Below are positions 1,758 through 37,214 of a stretch of 43,597 nt of DNA, piece after piece; position 1 is the first letter of the stretch; every line of letters starts with the position of its first letter. Under the pieces are notes generated by a model. The model made no database searches, was not told the DNA's origin, and worked only from the letters and a program-made list of their open reading frames with translations. This stretch comes from Bacteroidota bacterium (GTDB lineage Bacteria > Bacteroidota > Bacteroidia > Bacteroidales > VadinHA17), in the NCBI GenBank assembly GCA_030596025.1, contig JAUVKW010000003.1:1-43597 (forward strand), read 5' to 3'. The position numbers were made by a program, and so were the translations under genes.

Positions 1758-4373
1758 TTATTTTCCTAAAAACTTCTTAATTTCATTTAGCTTATTCAGA
1801 GCTTCCAGGGGTGTTAGATTATTTACATCAATATTGATTAATTCATCACGAATTTGTTGAAGTACCGGGTCATCCAGTTGAAAAATACTCAACTGCATTC
1901 CTTCTCTTTTTCCTGCAAGCTCTGAAACAGGTTCAGTCAGGCTTCTTTTATCTCTTGATTTTTCCAGTTCCTTAAGTATGATGTTGGCTCGCTGAATTAC
2001 ACTTTTAGGCATACCGGCCATACGTGCCACATGAATACCAAAGCTATGCTCACTTCCTCCTCTTTCAAGTTTGTGGAGGAAAAGAATTTTATCTTCCAGT
2101 TCCTTGATGGATACATTATAGTTCTTAACCCTGGAGAAAGAATTCTCCAGTTCATTCAGTTCATGATAATGTGTTGCAAAAAGGGTTTTGGCTCTCGCAG
2201 TGGGATCCTCATGTATATATTCAACCATTGCCCAGGCGATTGAAATTCCATCATAGGTACTGGTTCCCCTTCCAATTTCATCCAGTAAAACGAGGCTTCT
2301 TGATGAGAGATTGTTCAATATGCTGGCTGCCTCGTTCATCTCCACCATAAATGTAGATTCTCCCATAGAAATATTGTCAGAGGCTCCAACACGTGTAAAA
2401 ATTTTATCAATAAGACCTATTCTTGCACTCCTGGCCGGAATGAATGATCCAATCTGGGCCATTAGTACAATCAGGGCAGTTTGCCTTTAAAGAGCTGATT
2501 TTCCAGACATATTAGGGCCGGTTAAAATAATAATTTGTTGCTTTTTATTGTCCAGATAAACATTATTGGGAACATAGCTCTCGTCAAGAGGTAGTTGTTG
2601 CTCTATCACCGGATGCCTTCCCTGTTTTAGATCAATAATTTCTGAGCGGTCCAGAACAGGCCTGCTGTATTTATTTTCTGTAGCGATAGTGGCAAAAGAC
2701 AGAAGACAATCAAGCCTGGCAACTATGGATGAGTTGACTTGAATAGCAGGAATATAATCTGCAAGACTGCTTACCAGCTCATTAAATAAGCTTGTTTCCA
2801 GGCTGAGTATTTTTTCTTCGGCTCCCAGGATCTTGTTTTCATATTCTTTGAGCTCTTCTGTTATGTATCTTTCTGCACTAACCAGGGTTTGCTTTCGAAT
2901 CCATTCCTCCGGGACTTTATCTTTATGTGTGTTCCTGACTTCAATGTAATACCCAAATACATTATTAAAAGCCACTTTAAGGGATGGAATTCCTGTGCGT
3001 TTAATTTCCCGTTGTTGCATTTCCACCAGGTAATCTTTCCCCGAGAATAAAATTTTTCTCAATTCGTCAAGTTCTTTCGAAACTCCCTCTGCAATTACCA
3101 TTCCCTTAATTACCTGGGTTGGAGGGTCTGGATTCATATTCTTGTCTATTTTTTGCCGTATTTTTTTACAAGGATCAATTCCTTTCCCTGTTTTTACCAG
3201 GGAAGGAAGCTTAGAAGATTTACAGATATTCTGTATGGGATCCAGGGCAAAAAGGGCGTTTTTAATATGTGCCATTTCCCGGGGATTGATTCTTCCAACC
3301 GCTACTTTGGAGATTAATCTTTCCATGTCACCAATATGCCTGATGTGTTCCTCGATTTCTTCTTTTTCTTCAGGAGTTTTAATGAAGAACTCTACAATAT
3401 CCTGTCTTTCTTCAATAGGTTTGAGGTTTTTAAGGGGCATGGCGACCCATCTTTTTATCATTCTGGATCCCATGGGAGAAATGGTATGATCCAGAATATC
3501 AATCAGGGTTTTTGCTCCCTGATTCAAGGAATGAAAAAGCTCAAGATTTCTAATTGTAAATTTATCCAGCCAAACATATCTGTCAGCTTCTATTCTTGAA
3601 AGTTCTGAAATATGTTGCACCCTTGTATGCTGGGTTAAATCAAGATATTGAAGAATAGATCCTGCAGCAATGAGCCCATACCGAAGGTCCTGAACTCCAA
3701 ATCCTTTCATGGAGCTGGTCCCGAAATGTTTCAACAGACGCTCATAAGAGGTGTCTGCATCATACATCCAGTCATCCAGCTTAAAGGTATAGTATTTGTC
3801 ACCAAAGAATTCGAAAAATTGATTCTGGATTGCTTTTTCAATCAATATTTCTTTTGGCTGGAAATTGGTAATTAATTGATCGATATATTCCAGGCTTCCC
3901 TCCGATGTAAGAAACTCCCCGGTAGAAATATCCAGGAAGGCCACTCCTGCAATTTTATGATCAATATGAACCGAAGCGAGGAAATTGTTTTCTTTATGTT
4001 CAAGAACATTGTCATTTAAAGAAACACCAGGGGTAACCAATTCAGTAACACCCCGCTTAACAATTTTTTTTGTAAGTTTTGGGTCTTCAAGCTGTTCGCA
4101 AATAGCAACTCTTTGTCCTGCCCTTACAAGCTTTGGAAGATAAGTATCAATGGCATGATAGGGAAATCCTGCAAGTTCAACAAAGGATGCCTTTCCATTT
4201 GCCCTTCGGGTAAGAGTGATGCCGAGGATTTCAGCACTTTTAATAGCATCTTCTCCAAATGTTTCATAAAAATCACCTACACGAAAAAGCAGTATGGCAT
4301 CAGGATGCTGTGATTTTATCCTGTTGAATTGCTTCATCAGGGGAGTTTCCACTATTTTTTGCTTTTCACTCAA
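1758..4373 (-). pseudogene. mutS: DNA mismatch repair protein MutS interrupted by one in-frame TAA (2487-2489)
   Basis: GDFYE mismatch motif, Walker A GPNMSGKS, then [15 protein letters not shown]; STFMVEM, DEIGRGT and FATHYHEL follow. The two ORF-track pieces are in the same frame. Confidence 0.9.
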
Positions 4374-18065: not shown

Positions 18066-20942
18066 ATGGCTTTTGATTTATTTGTTGATAGACATATTGG
18101 TCCAAGGGAAGAGGAAGTGCAGAAAATGTTAGAAAAATGTGGGGTGTCCTCAATGAAGGATTTGATTGATAAAACCATTCCGCAAACCATAAGATTGCCC
18201 GAACCTCTTTCACTTGATGATGGAATTAGTGAGTATGAATATCTTGGGAAGATCAGGGAACTTGCCTCCAGAAATAAGCTTTATAAAACTTATATCGGAC
18301 AGGGTTATTACAATACTATATTGCCTTCTGTTATATTAAGAAATATCCTGGAAAATCCATCCTGGTACACCTCCTACACTCCTTACCAGGCTGAAGTTTC
18401 ACAGGGTCGCCTGGAAGCATTACTGAATTTTCAGACCATGGTAGTTGATCTTACGGGGATGGAAGTAACCAATGCCTCTCTCCTTGATGAAGCAACGGCT
18501 GCTGCCGAGGCTATGCTAATGGCATACCGGTCAAGATCACGTGATGCAGTAAAGGCTGAAGCTAAAAGGTTTTTTATTGACAAAAATGTTTTTCCCCAAA
18601 CTATTGAAGTGATACAGTCAAGGGCAGAGCCCCTGGGAGTTGAGCTGGTGATTTCCTCTTATAAAGACTTTGCTTTCGATGAAAAAATATTTGGGGCTTT
18701 AGTCCAGTTTCCAAATTGTGATGGGAACGTGGAGGACTACAAGGAATTTGCAGGCAGTGCCAGGGAAAATGGTTCTATGATGGTGGTTGCAGCTGATCTG
18801 CTTAGCCTCGCTATTTTAGTGCCTCCGGGAGAATGGGGTGCAGATGTAGTTGTGGGATCTACTCAAAGGTTTGGAATCCCCATGGGATTTGGAGGGCCTC
18901 ATGCAGCATATTTTGCAACATATGAGAAATATAAGAGGAATATTCCGGGAAGGATTATCGGGGTATCTGTGGATGCTCAGGGAAATCGTGCATTAAGAAT
19001 GGCGCTCCAAACCAGAGAGCAACATATTAAAAGAGAGCGGGCATCTTCTAACATTTGTACTGCACAGGCCTTGCTGGCCACTATGGCAGGGATGTATGCT
19101 GCATATCATGGCCCTGAAGGATTAAAAAGAATTGCCACCCATATTCATGAGAAGACTGTGGAACTGGAAGAGAACCTGGTAAAATTGGGTTATCAACAAA
19201 TAAATGCTAACCTGTTTGATACATTGAAAATTGTTTTGCCGGAAGAACTTTCAATCAAACAGTTGCAGGAGATTGCCCTTGAAAATAAAGTGAATCTGAA
19301 TTACATTGACGAGAAAACAGTGGGACTGAGCCTGGATGAAACCTGCTCACAAGCTGATGTGGATTTGCTAACCAGAATTTTTGCCACATTAGCAGCAAAG
19401 GATAATTTTAAACTTGATGCCCCTTCAGCAAAATATCGTTTTGAAAGTAAATTTTTGAGGGACACAAATTTTATGACTGGAGATGTATTTCACGCATACA
19501 GGTCTGAGACGGAGCTGATGAGGTATATAAAAATGCTTGAGAGAAAAGATATTTCTCTTACCGATTCAATGATATCGTTGGGCTCTTGTACCATGAAACT
19601 TAATGCGGCAGTTGAAATGCTCCCTCTTAGTTGGCCGGAGTTTGGTAATCTTCATCCTTTTGTTCCTGCAGATCAGGCAGCCGGATATCATCAATTGCTT
19701 GATGAACTGGAAGAGGACCTGAAAGTTATTACTGGATTTGATGCGGTTTCGTTTCAGCCTAATTCAGGAGCTGCTGGTGAATATGCCGGACTTTCTGTTA
19801 TTAGCGCGTGGCACCAGAGTAAGGGCCAGGCACATAGGAATATTGTTTTGATCCCTGCATCTGCTCATGGAACCAACCCGGCAAGTGCTGTTATGGCAGG
19901 TATGGATGTTGTAGTTGTAAATTGTGATGAGAATGGAAACACTGATGTTGAAAACCTCCGGTCTCTGGCAGAGCAGCATAAAGATAATCTTGCTGCCTTT
20001 ATGGTTACTTACCCTTCAACTCATGGGGTTTTTGAAGAGGAGATACGGGAAATGGTTGACATCATACACAGCAATGGCGGACAAATTTATATGGATGGTG
20101 CTAATATGAATGCTCAGATAGGATTTACAAATCCAGCATATATTGGGGCTGATGTTTGTCATTTAAACCTTCACAAAACTTTTGCTATTCCCCATGGAGG
20201 GGGTGGGCCGGGAATGGGCCCCATTGCAGTGGCCGGTCATCTTGCTGAGTTTCTGCCTGGTCATTCACAAGTTAAAACAGGCGGGGAAAAGTGTATAAAT
20301 GCCTTGTCTGCAGCACCATGGGGAAGTGCCAGCATACTCCCAATTTCTCATGCATATATTAAAATGCTGGGTGGGAAGGGCCTTACAAGAGCTACAGCCA
20401 TGGCAATATTAAATGCAAATTACCTTTCCAGATCTTTGGATAAGTATTTCGATATTCTCTATACCGGGAAGAACGGCTTTGTTGGGCACGAAATGATTAT
20501 GGACTGCAGAAAATTTAAAGCTGATAGTGGAATTACCGAATTGGATATTGCCAAAAGACTTATGGATTACGGCTTTCATGCACCAACTCTTTCATTTCCG
20601 GTTCACGGTACACTTATGGTGGAACCTACGGAAAGTGAATCCTTGCAGGAACTTGACAGGTTTGTGGAAGCCATGGAAAACATTTACCTGGAGATTCTCG
20701 ATATCTCTGAAAAACGGACCGACCCCCATGACAATGTTCTTAAAAATGCTCCTCATACAGATAAGGTAATAGCTTCTGATGACTGGGCTCATGCCTACTC
20801 AAGAGAAATGGCAGCTTTTCCATTAAGTTGGGTTCGAAACAATAAATTCTGGCCCCCGGTTGCAAGAGTTGATGATGCCTTTGGTGATAGAAACCTGGTT
20901 TGTACCTGCGAACCTATTGAATCATACAGAAAGGAAGAATGA
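18066..20942 (+). CDS. gcvP: Glycine dehydrogenase (decarboxylating), glycine cleavage P protein
   Basis: YTPYQAEVSQGRLE, SNICTAQALLA, LGSCTMKLN, HLNLHKTF. Confidence 0.98.
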   Translation: MAFDLFVDRHIGPREEEVQKMLEKCGVSSMKDLIDKTIPQTIRLPEPLSLDDGISEYEYLGKIRELASRNKLYKTYIGQGYYNTILPSVILRNILENPSWYTSYTPYQAEVSQGRLEALLNFQTMVVDLTGMEVTNASLLDEATAAAEAMLMAYRSRSRDAVKAEAKRFFIDKNVFPQTIEVIQSRAEPLGVELVISSYKDFAFDEKIFGALVQFPNCDGNVEDYKEFAGSARENGSMMVVAADLLSLAILVPPGEWGADVVVGSTQRFGIPMGFGGPHAAYFATYEKYKRNIPGRIIGVSVDAQGNRALRMALQTREQHIKRERASSNICTAQALLATMAGMYAAYHGPEGLKRIATHIHEKTVELEENLVKLGYQQINANLFDTLKIVLPEELSIKQLQEIALENKVNLNYIDEKTVGLSLDETCSQADVDLLTRIFATLAAKDNFKLDAPSAKYRFESKFLRDTNFMTGDVFHAYRSETELMRYIKMLERKDISLTDSMISLGSCTMKLNAAVEMLPLSWPEFGNLHPFVPADQAAGYHQLLDELEEDLKVITGFDAVSFQPNSGAAGEYAGLSVISAWHQSKGQAHRNIVLIPASAHGTNPASAVMAGMDVVVVNCDENGNTDVENLRSLAEQHKDNLAAFMVTYPSTHGVFEEEIREMVDIIHSNGGQIYMDGANMNAQIGFTNPAYIGADVCHLNLHKTFAIPHGGGGPGMGPIAVAGHLAEFLPGHSQVKTGGEKCINALSAAPWGSASILPISHAYIKMLGGKGLTRATAMAILNANYLSRSLDKYFDILYTGKNGFVGHEMIMDCRKFKADSGITELDIAKRLMDYGFHAPTLSFPVHGTLMVEPTESESLQELDRFVEAMENIYLEILDISEKRTDPHDNVLKNAPHTDKVIASDDWAHAYSREMAAFPLSWVRNNKFWPPVARVDDAFGDRNLVCTCEPIESYRKEE

Positions 20943-20947
20943 AGATT

Positions 20948-21153
20948 TCTCGCAGATAGCGCAGATTTGCGTAGAATAATTTAAAGATAGATTTTAACAG
21001 CTTTACAAAAAAAATCTGCGATTGTTTGTGAAATCAGCGTGAAATAGTCTCTCGCAGATGCCGCAGATTTGCGCAGAATAATTTGAAGAAAGATTTTAAC
21101 AGCTTTACAAAAAAAATCTGCGATTGTCTGCGAAATCAGCGTGAAATAGTCTC
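20948..21153. repeat. Two tandem 102-bp units built from inverted CGCAGAT/ATCTGCG modules
   Basis: CGCAGAT at 20951 and 21053; CTTTACAAAA at 21001 and 21103. The units are near-identical. Confidence 0.93.
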
Positions 21154-21174
21154 ATTCAGATAAAATTTTGAGTT

Positions 21175-21558
21175 TTGGAAAAATTAGAGAATAAAATATC
21201 TTATGATATAAGAGGTGCTATTTTTCTGGTTTACAATGAACTTGGTCCGGGTTTGTTGGAATCCGTATACGAAGCGGCATTAGCATTTGAATTATCTGCA
21301 ATGGGACATAAAGTTAAAACACAAGTTCCCCTGCCTGTAAAATATAAAGACGTTAAACTTGAACTTGGATTCAGACTGGATATTCTTGTTGACGACCTGG
21401 TGATTATTGAAATAAAATCGGTTGAAGAATTGGTACCAGTCCACTATAAACAATTACTGACCTATTTAAAGTTAACAGATAAAAAGCTTGGGTTATTGAT
21501 TAATTTCAATACTGATGAAATATCTGGCTCTATTAAACGGATAGTTAATGGCTTGTAG
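21175..21558 (+). CDS. GxxExxY protein (PD-(D/E)XK-like fold)
   Basis: ELGPGLLESVYE, RLDILVDDLVIIEIKSVE, QLLTYLK, GLLINF. Confidence 0.93.
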   Translation: MEKLENKISYDIRGAIFLVYNELGPGLLESVYEAALAFELSAMGHKVKTQVPLPVKYKDVKLELGFRLDILVDDLVIIEIKSVEELVPVHYKQLLTYLKLTDKKLGLLINFNTDEISGSIKRIVNGL

Positions 21559-21576
21559 AAATTTCTTACAAAATAG

Positions 21577-21649
21577 CAAAAAAAATCTGCGATTGTCTGC
21601 GAAATCAGCGTGAAATAGTCTCTCGCAGATAGCGCAGATTTACGCAGAA
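21577..21649. repeat. Third copy of the repeat junction, downstream of GxxExxY
   Basis: CAAAAAAAATCTGCGATTGTCTGCGAAATCAGCGTGAAATAGTCTCTCGCAGATAGCGCAGATTTACGCAGAA. Confidence 0.93.
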
Positions 21650-21662
21650 AAGAATAAATACG

Positions 21663-22658
21663 CTATTCAGCTTTTCTGCCAACCCTGAATATCGCATCCT
21701 GTATACTGAGATCTAGAATATCATACAGATCACGTCCATACGCCCTTACCTGTTTGGGGATAATGCTGTTTTGACTCATGCCTGGAACAGTGTTTATTTC
21801 AAGGAAATAAGGTGTGTTTCGCGAGATGATATAATCAATGCGAACAATACCATGGCATCCCAGCTTATCATATATTTTTGAGGAAAGCTTCATGCTCTGC
21901 TGTACCAGGTTATTTGATATTCCGGCAGGTGTGATTTCTTCAGCCTGGCCATCGGTGTATTTTGCCTCAAAATCAAAAAATTCATTTTTACTTACAATCT
22001 CGGTTAAGGGGAAAATGTGATTCTCCCCTGAAGCTTTAATAAGACCACATGAAATTTCAGTGCCATTTACAAATTCTTCAATAATTACCTCATCATCTTC
22101 AGTGAAAGCCTTAAGAATAGCAGCTTGCAAGCCATCTTCATGTGGCACCTTAGAAATACCAAAACTAGACCCACTATTATTTGGCTTAACAAAATATGGG
22201 GGTTTTATTTTTTTCTTGATTTCTTTCAGGTCAATTTGTTCATCTTTACGAACCATCATGCTCTTAGCAACAGGGATTCCAAACTCTTTCAGGAAGGTCT
22301 TACAGGCAAACTTGCTAAAACTCAAGGCTGAACAGAAAGCCCCACAACTTGTGTAAGGAATTCCAATAAGGTCAAAATAAGATTGGAGCTTGCCATCTTC
22401 CCCGGGTATTCCATGGATAGCAATCAAAATACAGTCAAAATAAATTTGTTGCCCCTCGTGAATGAAAGAGAAGTCGTTCTTATCTATATCTATTTTATTT
22501 TGATTTACCTGAGCTTTCCATTTATTACCCCTTATCTGAACAATGTATGCTTCATACTTGCCGGTATCCAATACCTTTAATAGTTCATCCGCACTTTGAA
22601 TGGATATCTCATATTCTGAAGAATCTCCGCCGGCAACAACAGCTATCTTTTGTCTCAT
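21663..22658 (-). CDS. ddl: D-alanine--D-alanine ligase
   Basis: GGDSSEYEIS, HGIPGEDG, VKPNNSGSSFG, FDFEAKY, EINTVPG. Confidence 0.95.
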   Translation of the reverse strand: MRQKIAVVAGGDSSEYEISIQSADELLKVLDTGKYEAYIVQIRGNKWKAQVNQNKIDIDKNDFSFIHEGQQIYFDCILIAIHGIPGEDGKLQSYFDLIGIPYTSCGAFCSALSFSKFACKTFLKEFGIPVAKSMMVRKDEQIDLKEIKKKIKPPYFVKPNNSGSSFGISKVPHEDGLQAAILKAFTEDDEVIIEEFVNGTEISCGLIKASGENHIFPLTEIVSKNEFFDFEAKYTDGQAEEITPAGISNNLVQQSMKLSSKIYDKLGCHGIVRIDYIISRNTPYFLEINTVPGMSQNSIIPKQVRAYGRDLYDILDLSIQDAIFRVGRKAE

Positions 22659-35768: not shown

Positions 35769-36548
35769 TTACAATTTTACCTGTTGAAGATATTCTTCAA
35801 ACAATAGTACCTTCTTAATATCTTTCATATTGATCAGAAAAGGACGTACATCACTGGACATTTCTTCCATGTTAATTTCCTCCATTCTTCCCAGTATAGA
35901 ATTTTTCAACTGAACTCCATTAGAGATGGAAGCTTTTGAATTAAGAAAATCATAATTCGGACTTATATTTTTACTTAGCAAAAATATAACATCATAAAAA
36001 TCCCTCCCTTTACTTTGTTCTCTTTCCAGAATGGTTAAGAATTTCTGTGCCAAAAGTATGTCAGGAGGAGTGACTTTAATCTCAGTAAAAACATCAAATT
36101 TATTTATAAGGTATGATTCTGCTTGAAAATCAAAATGCTGAGCTTCAGTGTCAAGCCTTATCAATATCTTTTCTTCCTGGTGCCCTGATAATTTATAGTT
36201 ATAAAGTATTTTTGGAAATCTTATATAACAATGATAAGCTCCACGTTTAACATTACGAAATTCAACCTGGTAGCCTTCTAGTTGTAATCCGTTTTGTATG
36301 GATATAGTGACTTCCGTGAACACATCAGTTGTAATATTGAAATTATCAAAATCAAGATCCTCAGAGAACCTGTTATTGTCATGAACAATCCTAAGAGCTG
36401 TACCTCCAATAAAAGCAAACTGATTTGCATATTCACTCTCAAATAATATTTCCAGTATCTTATACTGCAGGTACTCTCTGAGCATAAATCGCTCAAAACC
36501 CTTTAAATTATCAGGGTAATACTGCTTTATTTGATCAAGATTAAGCAT
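35769..36548 (-). CDS. AbiEii/AbiGii-family nucleotidyltransferase toxin
   Basis: REYLQ, FIGGTALRI, RFSEDLDF, K...RDFYD. Confidence 0.92.
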   Translation of the reverse strand: MLNLDQIKQYYPDNLKGFERFMLREYLQYKILEILFESEYANQFAFIGGTALRIVHDNNRFSEDLDFDNFNITTDVFTEVTISIQNGLQLEGYQVEFRNVKRGAYHCYIRFPKILYNYKLSGHQEEKILIRLDTEAQHFDFQAESYLINKFDVFTEIKVTPPDILLAQKFLTILEREQSKGRDFYDVIFLLSKNISPNYDFLNSKASISNGVQLKNSILGRMEEINMEEMSSDVRPFLINMKDIKKVLLFEEYLQQVKL

Positions 36549-37152
36549 CTAAGTAATCAATAAACAGTTTTACTCGAGAGTCCATTATTTTTGAACTAAA
36601 TACGGATAAATAATCCAGCATTTTATCCTTCAGAATTATTTCATTAGCGACCACTTGATTCAACCTGAGAGCATCTAATGATTTTTTATCATTTATCTTG
36701 TTAAAATAGAAGAAATCTAAAATTGCTTTTTCAGCTTCTGCCAACTTAATATTGTATTCCCCAAATTGTATCAATCGGTAACCAAAGAATAATTCTTGTT
36801 TAATGGTCTGGTACTGATAATTCCCCAGAGGAGTTTCAAAGAGCATAGTTTTCCTTGTTGATACTGAAGTATTGAGGAAAGCAGCTTCTGGAATCAAATT
36901 GTAATAAGACAAGGCTGTTGCCATTGAAATATAGGAGGGTTTATATATTTTATTTGAGATATGCATCAGAAAATTATCATTGATATCTTTCTCCTGAAAA
37001 TAATAATAACCGTTACGTATCTTTTTAATATAGTTCTTTGCCTGCCACTCGACTAATCTTTTTCGATCAAATCCGGATGTAACTTTCTTAATGTCAGAAT
37101 ATGAGAATACAGGAAATGCTGACAATGCCTTCCTAAATTCAATAAAATTCAT
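36541..37152 (-). CDS. AbiEi-family type IV antitoxin (wHTH)
   Basis: KIRNGYY, PSYISMATALSYYNLIPE, AEAEKAILD. Overlaps the toxin start. ATG 37152 is preferred. Confidence 0.88.
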   Translation of the reverse strand: MNFIEFRKALSAFPVFSYSDIKKVTSGFDRKRLVEWQAKNYIKKIRNGYYYFQEKDINDNFLMHISNKIYKPSYISMATALSYYNLIPEAAFLNTSVSTRKTMLFETPLGNYQYQTIKQELFFGYRLIQFGEYNIKLAEAEKAILDFFYFNKINDKKSLDALRLNQVVANEIILKDKMLDYLSVFSSKIMDSRVKLFIDYLDA

Positions 37153-37162
37153 GATATTTCTA

Positions 37163-37214
37163 TTTGTTGCTAAATATAACAACAAAAAGCAATAAAAACA
37201 AATACGATTTGTTT
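37163..37214. promoter_or_regulatory. Two inverted repeats upstream of abiEi (putative operator)
   Basis: TTTGTTGCTA-AATA-TAACAACAAA (37163-37186) and AAACAAAT-ACG-ATTTGTTT (37196-37214). Confidence 0.55.

Follow-up and report, generated by a model that had tools for sequence, protein, structure and literature searches.

A GxxExxY nuclease gene among tandem palindromic units with phased hexamer arms in a Bacteroidota genome

What is a small nuclease gene doing in a row of inverted-repeat units between two housekeeping genes? The question is raised by positions 20948-21649 of a 43,597-nt stretch of a Bacteroidota genome (contig JAUVKW010000003.1, positions 1-43,597), the whole of which is called the window here. 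The block reads L-spacer-R-linker-L-spacer-R-linker-(remnant)-GxxExxY gene-R-linker-L, where L is the left arm and R the inverted arm, and is flanked by the convergent genes gcvP and ddl. Each arm carries three CGCAGA-type hexamers.

Organization of the gcvP-ddl block

The features of the block and its two flanking genes are as follows:

18066..20942, plus strand: gcvP (glycine dehydrogenase), left flank, for context only (PF02347, E 1.4e-190; PF21478)
20948..20976, plus strand: L1, three CGCAGA-type hexamers, the third being CGTAGA
20977..21011, plus strand: spacer 1 (first gene-less unit), leading via the A8 run into R1
21012..21039, plus strand: R1, inverted arm (TCTGCG, TTTGTG, TCAGCG; R pattern with 2 mismatches)
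21040..21049, plus strand: linker between R1 and L2 (the 12-nt TGAAATAGTCTC of the original prediction extends 2 nt into the start of L)
21050..21078, plus strand: L2
21079..21113, plus strand: spacer 2 (second gene-less unit), leading via the A8 run into R2
21114..21141, plus strand: R2 (R pattern with 0 mismatches)
21142..21174, plus strand: linker and deletion scar (L arm and gene leader); cagataaaattttgagtt is common to the sister genome G001
21175..21558, plus strand: GxxExxY gene, TTG start, for a 127-aa RecB/Cas4-like PD-(D/E)XK nuclease without cysteines
21559..21582, plus strand: gene trailer, running into the A8 run that precedes R3; homologous to a gene-less spacer in G001
21583..21610, plus strand: R3, from the R pattern search
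21611..21620, plus strand: linker between R3 and L3
21621..21649, plus strand: L3, which pairs with R3 as a hairpin (-29.1 kcal/mol, z -5.3)
21663..22658, minus strand: ddl (D-Ala-D-Ala ligase), right flank, for context only (PF07478, E 8.9e-50)

The L and R modules, the linker, the 102-bp period, the flanking genes and a gene placed where the other units have a spacer between L and R had all been described in the original prediction, and all are present in the sequence. The R pattern, with up to three mismatches allowed, has 3 matches in the window compared with a mean of 0.00 in 100 shuffles, and the junction TGAAATAGTCTC has the same sequence at 3/3 R-to-L junctions. The 102-bp unit occurs in two copies (93% identity) and a 73-nt A8-R-linker-L block in three, the A8 run immediately preceding R in both spacers and in the gene trailer. 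Between the window arms the hexamers are complementary and the spacers that separate them are not. The elements of the predicted 'ordered array' are real, though the series is most fittingly described as a row of tandem L-X-R units with the linker between them. The block is shown to be a tandem cluster of small palindromic DNA elements, the arms of which consist of three hexamers one helical turn apart. A 'degenerate L' had also been placed directly before the gene (21152-21174). Because G001 keeps an intact L and a further ~30 nt at this position, the stretch is evidently a deletion remnant rather than a decayed copy, and the deletion junction in the window coincides with a CAGAT shared with G001.

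Read on the minus strand, the R3-linker-L3 hairpin lies just past the ddl stop and is followed by U8 (minus-strand fold -28 kcal/mol). The R-linker-L hairpins, each followed by T8 on this strand, probably terminate ddl transcription and stop antisense transcription into the gene. These features, together with the state of the source genome (a metagenome-assembled draft of 225 contigs), could suggest that the hairpins are ordinary terminators or regulatory structures with an unrelated small gene next to them, or that the block is an assembly artefact, an explanation that we regard as very improbable and largely refuted. A consensus terminator scan, limited to loops of 3-8 nt and counting at most 20 stem pairs, found 0 sites here, the association statistics given below contradict chance, and the same locus structure is present in G001, which was assembled independently. 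Nor does the 102-bp duplication look like an artefact: its two units differ in sequence, and exact Logan contig pieces cover each junction in runs X1 and X2 and some junctions in X3, although these three runs may include the source sample and so count weakly as independent support for the assembly. Joints expected of copy-number or excision variants were absent from the Logan contigs of runs X1-X4, in which contigs break at repeats, as expected.

The locus had been predicted to be transposase-free, and no ORF of at least 120 aa in the window (35 in all) belongs to a transposase or integrase family; the only ORF in the block is that of the 127-aa nuclease. The lack of an integrase family among the window ORFs sets the block apart from integron (attC) cassette arrays. 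An Rfam search at E up to 10 over 20700-21900 returned chance-level rows only, with no family and no rRNA match.

The GxxExxY protein and its associated repeats

The 127-aa product matches PF13366 (PDDEXK_3; E 3.4e-41, 140.7 bits, curated cut-off 22) and TIGR04256 (GxxExxY; E 2.6e-42, 143.8 bits, curated cut-off 35). The residues of the GxxExxY motif (G26, E29, Y32) and of the D...ExK motif (D69, E79, K81) do not vary among 60 homologues, Q93 and Y97 are conserved alongside E29, D69, E79 and K81, and in the window protein D69 and IIEIK (77-81) are intact. We take the motifs E, D, ExK and QxxxY to be those of the Cas4/RecB family. The predicted structure (pLDDT 94.6) has restriction-type and Cas4/RecB-type nucleases as its nearest folds (3ijm, Z 8.4; BpuSI, 7.5; Cas4, 7.3). 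Assignment to a specific family by fold (Foldseek, VIA) was attempted and returned only generic PD-(D/E)XK neighbours, and a PDB sequence search with the window protein gave no match. The likeness to Cas4 lies in the core fold and in weak matches (profile E 3.9e-4); unlike Cas4, the window protein is half the size, has no cysteines and has no cas genes nearby, none being present among the window ORFs. In Cas4 four cysteines hold an Fe-S cluster, and the window protein, having none, would carry no such cluster. The dN/dS ratio is 0.04-0.05 among Hymenobacter orthologues and 0.24 between the window's genome (G000) and G001. Judged from its sequence and modelled fold, the window protein is a RecB/Cas4-like PD-(D/E)XK nuclease that is intact and kept by purifying selection. 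Fusion partners were also sought, but 97 longer homologues were run-ons with unrelated housekeeping enzymes and had no constant DNA-binding or other domain. At least one GxxExxY gene is present in 148/251 genomes of the sampled order, and the function of GxxExxY/PDDEXK_3 is given as 'Unknown' in the accessible text of PMC3424549.

That repeats would be linked to GxxExxY genes in general was borne out in other genomes, where 53/80 close homologues (54-93% identity) have at least four CGCAG/CTGCG words in their 2 x 150 nt flanks, compared with 3.7% of 437 control windows. At a further 16 loci, at least five such words were found for 6/6 genes of at least 56% identity and for 1/10 below 56%. The inverted-repeat score (150 nt upstream versus 150 nt downstream, with same-geometry windows as controls) exceeded the control 99th percentile at 17/30 GxxExxY loci of relatives. 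Successive hexamers start 10 nt apart in 93 cases and 9 nt apart in 17, and the core CGCAGA(T) is constant in Bacteroidota, Ignavibacteriota, Balneolota and Cloacimonadota while the spacers vary. Conservation of core and phase with variable spacers is a sign that the arms may be read by a protein, beyond mere pairing. The expected co-variation of repeat sequence and protein phylogeny was also observed: repeat-core types are clustered on the protein tree (39 changes versus 63.8 in shuffles, with 0/200 shuffles as low), and the CACGA, CACAA, CGCAA, CACTA and CACAG types each occur in distinct protein clades, across different hosts.

At the level of whole genomes, GxxExxY is present in 40/45 of those with at least five array matches versus 108/206 others (Fisher 3e-6). 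CGCAG-clade genes lie nearly always within arrays, an example being G259 (20 array matches), whose one such gene is flanked by arrays, whereas arrays often occur without a gene, the pattern that a resident of the arrays would give. In G153, which is 99% complete, the array pattern matches 120 times and no GxxExxY gene is found even with the E threshold at 1, and G013 (46 array matches), G273 (42) and G236 (21) have no CGCAG-clade gene beside their arrays. The arrays are an independent repeat family able to multiply without the gene, and the repeats are not exclusive to it, as seen both in these array-rich genomes and in G000, which has one GxxExxY gene and at least six other repeat sites. In G153 the array unit is nested in a larger element that has outer ends of its own, and these also flank other inserts. 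GxxExxY genes are also found in type I restriction-modification operons, for example as a cassette between hsdM and hsdS. A search of the openly accessible literature turned up no description of the gene-array association.

The same architecture, with other repeats, is seen around four-helix-bundle genes in G000 and its relatives, 18/22 of these loci exceeding the control 99th percentile of the inverted-repeat score. An unbiased inverted-repeat scan of G000, which missed the window locus because its arms share no exact 11-mer, ranked three known four-helix-bundle cassettes highest, together with two segments that lack an ORF; a further two such cassettes came lower in the ranking. Two of its top matches, C109 and C112, have no convincing ORF. 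Among the clusters examined, the cassettes carry essentially two protein families and are not random cargo.

Spread of the gene and of gene-less units

According to the original prediction the locus might be a mobile or cassette system, and in paralogous loci gene and arms do behave as one movable unit. In G033 a 481-nt segment shared by the paralogues L176 and L177 (91% identity) starts and ends at the arms, with unrelated flanks on either side, and gene and arms are shared in the same way in L078/L079/L080, L069 versus L073 and L114 versus L131. The protein tree cuts across phyla. At the level of sequence comparison, L-gene-R (~0.5 kb) is shown to be a single module, inherited and duplicated as one and present in unrelated genomic contexts and phyla. 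No target-site duplication is present at L176/L177.

Gene-less units and an empty gcvP-ddl site had been anticipated, and both exist. Within the genus the site is empty in G003, holds L only (L1) in G002 and is filled in G001 and in the window. G003 has neither gene nor units, while in both G000 and G001 a single gene has R-linker-L units on its flanks, and dispersed gene-less units occur in addition. In G000 the array pattern has 11 matches versus 0 for the reversed pattern, and full or partial gene-less units lie on C147, C149, C51, C153, C112 and C47. The unit on C147 is an 83-bp indel, missing at the orthologous site of the sister species G001; a 7-nt TGCATAA is present at both of its ends and is ambiguous, as it overlaps a hexamer-like word. 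In G001 a 9-nt AAGAGATTT repeat surrounds the gene segment. The dispersed gene-less units of the genus have the R-linker-L form, not L-spacer-R, and the two gene-less L-spacer-R units beside the gene are unfilled in both G000 and G001 and have been so since before the species split. In Hymenobacter the gene occupies one fixed site across species (dS 0.8-1.4) under strong purifying selection; the arms of the orthologous cassettes co-vary, and one cassette is inverted.

Explanations for the association

The explanation that we favour, while holding it at somewhat below even confidence, is that the nuclease recognizes the phased hexamers of its own arms and persists, in a homing-like manner, within a MITE-like palindrome family. 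The nuclease would be a sequence-specific DNA enzyme recognizing the phased hexamers of its own arm type, probably as an oligomer on double-stranded DNA. It would cleave units that lack the gene, or else its own unit at the ends, and so be copied into or moved between palindromes, the copying being performed by host recombination with the arms as homology. In effect it would be a free-standing homing-type nuclease resident in a MITE-like repeat family. There is a precedent in I-Ssp6803I, described in the accessible text of PMC3384342 as a small PD-(D/E)xK homing endonuclease that acts as a tetramer on a 23-bp pseudo-palindromic target. In both cases a small restriction-fold nuclease belongs to an invasive element, the gene lies within its own apparent target, and the target is long and pseudo-palindromic and bound by an oligomer (here a proposal). 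The present gene differs in not being intronic, in having dispersed repeats of one family, and not a unique gene, as its putative target, in the persistence of empty units next to it and in showing no sequence similarity.

Several observations weigh against this homing-like explanation. Efficient homing would have filled the neighbouring and dispersed units that remain unfilled, and a 'gene in the loop' model expects L-spacer-R, whereas the dispersed units of the genus are R-linker-L. The partial co-occurrence, with array-rich genomes such as G153, G013, G273 and G236 lacking a CGCAG-clade gene, also argues against a homing nuclease, and the fixed, selected Hymenobacter site is more what a domesticated or host-useful gene would show than what a homing gene in its cycle would. 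Since genes for four-helix-bundle proteins, not nucleases, are arranged in the same way, a mechanism without a self-encoded nuclease may serve both families, and the hexamer reader could be a protein other than the nuclease. A bolder version, which we think unlikely, makes L-gene-R a new class of minimal autonomous mobile element of ~0.5 kb with the 127-aa RecB/Cas4-like nuclease as its sole product. The nuclease would recognize the 10-bp-phased hexamer arrays at both ends, with its own word for each protein clade; the element would move via a circular or tandem R-linker-L junction form and leave MITE-like L-loop-R and R-linker-L derivatives, and the four-helix-bundle cassettes, rRNA intervening sequences among them, would follow the same way of life as a parallel branch. 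We know of no autonomous element as small as this. Terminal inverted repeats, gene-less derivatives of ~80-110 bp, indel polymorphism between sister species, and tandem and nested copies are shared with MITEs and minimal insertion sequences; unlike these, the present units come with no DDE, HUH or serine/tyrosine recombinase and show no clear target-site duplication.

The arrays might instead be the ends of a MITE-like family moved by a putative trans-acting enzyme or by host recombination, with the nuclease riding along as passive cargo and serving another role such as defence or repair. Multiplication of arrays without the gene, the nested unit of G153 with outer ends that bound other inserts, the run-on of 'longer' homologues into many unrelated housekeeping genes, which indicates promiscuous insertion, and the genes in restriction-modification operons are all as such a reading would have it. 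However, random genes would not be limited to essentially two protein families, each protein clade keeps its own repeat type, and the window has no transposase or integrase; we consider passive carriage a doubtful alternative. In another version the nuclease is no parasite; it would be a single-copy, vertically kept, domesticated enzyme that mobilizes or maintains its own dispersed palindromic doublets, much as the RAYT transposase is believed to serve REPINs, hairpin-forming pairs of inverted REPs (PMC3337134, accessible text). G000 and G001, with one gene, flanking and dispersed R-linker-L units and an inter-species indel, resemble this arrangement, as does the single gene of G259 within its arrays, and the joint absence of gene and units from G003, the commoner occurrence of GxxExxY in array-rich genomes and the long-term selection at the Hymenobacter site point the same way. 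REPIN-RAYT systems likewise have short, dispersed palindromic hairpin doublets and a single-copy gene that is kept vertically under purifying selection, with a flanking repeat type that follows the protein clade. The protein here, however, is a PD-(D/E)XK hydrolase (PF13366) and not a Y1 HUH transposase able to rejoin DNA, and the arrays reach high copy in genomes without the gene, as in G153, or, as in G013, G273 and G236, with no CGCAG-clade gene beside them. REPs are GC-rich hairpins with a GTAG tag, whereas the arms here are arrays of 3-4 phased hexamers. RAYT itself was considered as the array partner and rejected: PF01797 (Y1 transposase) has no match in G000, and Y1 transposase genes, present in 3/5 genomes searched (G153, G013 and G273), are flanked by other repeats. 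A relation of this kind is thus rather improbable.

We also considered action at the RNA level, in the manner of an intervening sequence, where L and R would pair in the transcript, the stem would be cut by RNase III or protect the mRNA, the cassette would be harmless in any transcribed spacer or operon, and the hexamers would be by-products of slippage. The model comes from a 23S rRNA intervening sequence in which a four-helix-bundle ORF lies within terminal inverted repeats and a 28-bp stem is cut by RNase III (PMC4990558, accessible text). Such sequences, with their S23p/four-helix-bundle ORF, share with the present module a size of ~0.45-0.5 kb, one small ORF within terminal inverted repeats, sporadic distribution and horizontal transfer, and a four-helix-bundle sister architecture is found in this very genome. 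The stable RNA fold of R-linker-L, the co-varying arms in Hymenobacter and cassettes inside operons such as hsdM/hsdS would also suit an RNA mechanism. Differences are that the present module lies outside rRNA, between gcvP and ddl, that its ORF encodes a nuclease and that its arms are sequence-conserved phased hexamer arrays with no sign of selection for sense-RNA pairing. Arm transition mismatches are 89 of the G-U type versus 91 of the A-C type (72 loci, p 0.94), so that no sense-strand G-U bias is seen; pairing alone does not require a hexamer sequence and 10-nt phase conserved across phyla, and the spacers in the window arms are unpaired. As one Hymenobacter cassette is inverted, recombination of DNA between the arms, and with it gene conversion, could explain the co-variation. 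The earlier suggestion that the array yields structured RNAs for the nuclease likewise found no support, neither in G-U bias nor in a match to any Rfam family, and we consider an RNA-level element quite unlikely.

GxxExxY/PDDEXK_3 proteins are common in annotations, and the inverted arrays of phased hexamers supply them with a concrete, testable DNA partner, a first handle on the function of the family. The shared architecture links GxxExxY to four-helix-bundle (S23p/Avd-like) genes, so far best known from rRNA intervening sequences, and the arrays account for intergenic repeats of a class at which Bacteroidota metagenome assemblies break. Should the nuclease read short words that differ between clades, nature would offer in this family a ready collection of small proteins that bind or cut DNA sequence-specifically. 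That a module of gene and repeats recurs across Bacteroidota suggests a kind of selfish DNA module not described before.

The gcvP-ddl block and its counterparts in the genus

The window covers all of contig C10 of G000, a draft genome of 225 contigs. The block at 20948-21649 is flanked by the convergent genes gcvP and ddl and reads, in order, L1, spacer, R1, linker, L2, spacer, R2, linker, a 23-nt remnant, a 127-aa ORF, trailer, R3, linker and L3. Each left arm (L) has three CGCAGA-type hexamers 9-10 nt apart, and each right arm (R) is made of their complements. The ORF was assigned as follows.

21175-21558: GxxExxY ORF (PF13366, E = 3.4e-41; TIGR04256 'GxxExxY', E = 2.6e-42)

The ordered L-spacer-R array of the original prediction, with its 102-nt period, was recovered by a repeat finder applied to the window as a 102-nt unit present twice at 93% identity, together with a 73-nt A8-R-linker-L block present three times. 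The R module occurs three times at ≤3 mismatches, against a mean of 0.00 in 100 shuffles. A transposase-free system had been suggested, and no integrase or transposase family was matched among the 35 window ORFs of at least 120 aa. The 102-nt duplication is not a collapse artefact of assembly, a concern raised at the outset, because the two units differ in sequence; each junction is also covered by exact contig pieces from sequencing runs X1 and X2, and some by X3, all of which may include the source sample.

Elsewhere in the window, on the minus strand, mutS is split by a frameshift, stop or sequencing error into ORFs 27 nt apart (1761-2462 and 2490-4373) that hold domains I-IV and domain V between them. 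The minus strand also carries an ORF for an AbiEii-family nucleotidyltransferase toxin (35772-36548), which overlaps a 214-aa ORF without a Pfam match (36544-37185); together they are likely a type IV toxin-antitoxin pair.

The gcvP-ddl site was compared across three genomes of the same genus, and an empty site of the kind sought was found. In G003, the most distant (flanks ∼70% identical in nucleotides), the site is a short, repeat-free spacer, and in G002 it holds one L and nothing more. In G001 it is filled, with the order L, spacer, R, linker, L, 30 nt, leader, gene, trailer, R, linker, L and a gene product 93% identical in amino acids to that of the window. Because G001 has L, 30 nt and leader at the position of the window's 'degenerate L', that segment is a deletion scar rather than a decayed arm copy. 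In G001 the gene-less spacer equals the trailer of the gene, and the gene segment is bracketed by a 9-nt AAGAGATTT repeat. A single clean insertion or deletion therefore separates filled from gene-less units. Between G000 and G001, dS was 0.128 for the GxxExxY gene (window 21175-21555), 0.242 for the 3' end of gcvP and 0.337 for ddl; the lower cassette value possibly reflects recent exchange, gene conversion or extra constraint.

Linkage of gene and arrays, and arrays without the gene

GxxExxY was matched in 31 of 41 related genomes, and many of the genes have a short-word array upstream and a complement array downstream, the word varying by locus (CGCAGA, CACAGAG, CGCAAAG, CACAAAG, CACGAAT, CACTAA). 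The inverted-repeat score exceeded the 99th percentile of same-geometry controls, drawn from the same loci, in 17 of 30 GxxExxY loci. Eighty closer homologues (54-93% identity) came from Bacteroidota, Ignavibacteriota, Balneolota, Cloacimonadota and one Anaerolineae bin; at least four CGCAG/CTGCG words were present in the flanks of 53, compared with 3.7% of 437 control windows, and none in 11. Their array core is CGCAGA(T), with hexamers spaced by 10 nt (93 cases) or 9 nt (17 cases). Co-variation of repeat sequence with protein phylogeny was to be checked, and it holds: on a 118-protein tree that cuts across phyla, the repeat-core label required 39 changes versus 63.8 when shuffled (0/200 as low), although, as related rows share labels by descent, this clustering is linkage and not yet function. 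At 16 further loci, arrays were of CGCAG type in 6/6 at ≥56% identity versus 1/10 below. No published description of the gene-array association was found in the searchable literature.

Arrays also exist without the gene. By tblastn, G000 has a single GxxExxY gene, and gene-less units were located on six of its contigs (C147, C149, C51, C153, C112 and C47) as full or partial R-linker-L. At C147 the unit corresponds to an 83-nt indel relative to the orthologous G001 site, with TGCATAA at both ends, and the empty G001 site reads TGCAGAA; the C149 unit is common to both genomes. Two other kinds of intergenic repeat lie near G000 units (C47:13640-13960, C149:9500-9760, C153:2700-2800, C112:380-470, C160:3800-3900), namely purine-rich low-complexity runs (gagaga/gaagag-like) and a 'gcagtcccgaaa...tttcgaggatcctcg' element.

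Matches to CGCAGA-N3-5-CGCAGA far exceed the reversed-pattern control in many genomes, reaching 46 in G013, 120 in G153 and 64 in G186. Units in G013 are L-loop-R, ∼90-110 nt, with ends TTTCCCGCAGA...TCTGCGGGAAA, placed between ordinary genes; in G029 and the window's genus the gene-less form is R-linker-L. Among 251 genomes of the order, 40/45 array-rich genomes have a GxxExxY gene versus 108/206 others (Fisher test, 3e-6; counts read by hand from two tables). G153, the richest in arrays and 99% complete, gave no GxxExxY match even at E 1, and its array units are nested in a larger element that has outer ends of its own. A GxxExxY gene of the CGCAG clade is also absent from G013, G273 and G236; G259 carries one, with flanks like those in the window. 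The arrays are distinct from the repeats of Y1/RAYT genes.

In G153 (L216-L224), AATGATGATTTAWCGG and its complement bound ∼160-320-nt intergenic palindromic modules whose inner part is of several different types, the CGCAGA array being one. The motif has 43 matches there versus 0 for the reversed control, and the modules resemble a MITE family that is composite or nested.

A moving module and its four-helix-bundle sister

Gene and phased-hexamer arms form one module that spreads and is polymorphic. Two paralogues in G033 are 91% identical over 481 nt, starting and stopping at the arms, with unrelated flanks and no target duplication at either. Gene plus arrays are the only DNA common to L078, L079 and L080, and likewise to L069 and L073, and to L114 and L131. 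In Hymenobacter the cassette occupies one orthologous site in several species, and its arms co-vary (T/T versus G/G, C/C versus T/T). At L131 the whole L-gene-R cassette is inverted against the flanking genes, relative to L114, L133, L135, L136, L137 and L139; thus, the two arms recombine with each other.

At L010 (G031:C1:432740-436081), a GxxExxY cassette separates the type I N6-methylase gene hsdM from the specificity gene hsdS, with a second GxxExxY ∼2 kb upstream. L080 appears to have another GxxExxY reading frame that begins directly after its downstream arrays, which would make two cassettes in tandem.

A similar architecture surrounds four-helix-bundle genes of the TIGR02436 family: of 30 loci sampled, 8 could not be scored and 18/22 had their own tandem words upstream and complements downstream. 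G000 has six such genes, most with their own words and complements (clear for C160, C180 and C28), and the words are unrelated to CGCAGA.

Four-helix-bundle genes of G000 (all TIGR02436)
C160:4069-4386
C221:12675-12995
C217:7626-7946
C25:1444-1737
C180:2083-2397
C28:9091-9414

C217 and C25 share 88% identity over a stretch that runs from the upstream 12-mer array into the gene; C25 carries a TGA. When G000 was scanned for inverted repeats without bias, four-helix-bundle cassettes and two ORF-less segments (C109:21945-22415, C112:17057-17468) ranked at the top. These segments are ∼350-470 nt long, with strong inverted repeats at their ends and no convincing ORF, and may be either cassettes in decay or non-coding elements. 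The known relative of this sister architecture is the 23S rRNA intervening sequence, for which an S23p ORF, a terminal stem of 28 bp and excision by RNase III are described (PMC4990558).

The nuclease and what may read the arms

The window nuclease gene is intact and under selection. Residues G26, L27, E29, Y32, D69, E79, K81, S82, K92, Q93, T96, N110, F111 and R122 are invariant in 60 homologues and Y97 nearly so, and dN/dS is 0.04-0.05 among Hymenobacter orthologues. The structure model is confident (pLDDT 94.6); among its fold neighbours, which comprise restriction-type nucleases, Cas4/RecB-type nucleases and Hjc, none stands out. Cas4-type matches in profile libraries are weak, and the window protein has zero cysteines. 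Homologues that are longer run on into unrelated housekeeping genes. In the set P0001-P0097, the GxxExxY domain is called in one frame with many enzymes unrelated to each other, among which NUDIX, RNase H, CN-hydrolase, FabZ and QueC recur, and there is often no stop codon between the cassette and the gene it abuts.

As a rival to a protein-read signal, the arms could act as an RNA stem. The R-linker-L hairpin is stable (−29.1 kcal/mol, z −5.3) and on the minus strand precedes a U8 run just downstream of ddl. Across 72 loci, arm transition mismatches are split between 89 sense-strand G-U and 91 A-C, and transversions dominate (388). This split, with the conserved word and the 10-nt phase, favours a DNA-level signal read by a protein over an RNA stem. 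The leading reading, still tentative, is that the nuclease may read its own arms and use them in a homing-like way. The persistence of empty neighbours, the long vertical stability and the non-nuclease sister family weaken it. Its rivals are the RNA stem, a partner of the RAYT kind and passive cargo.
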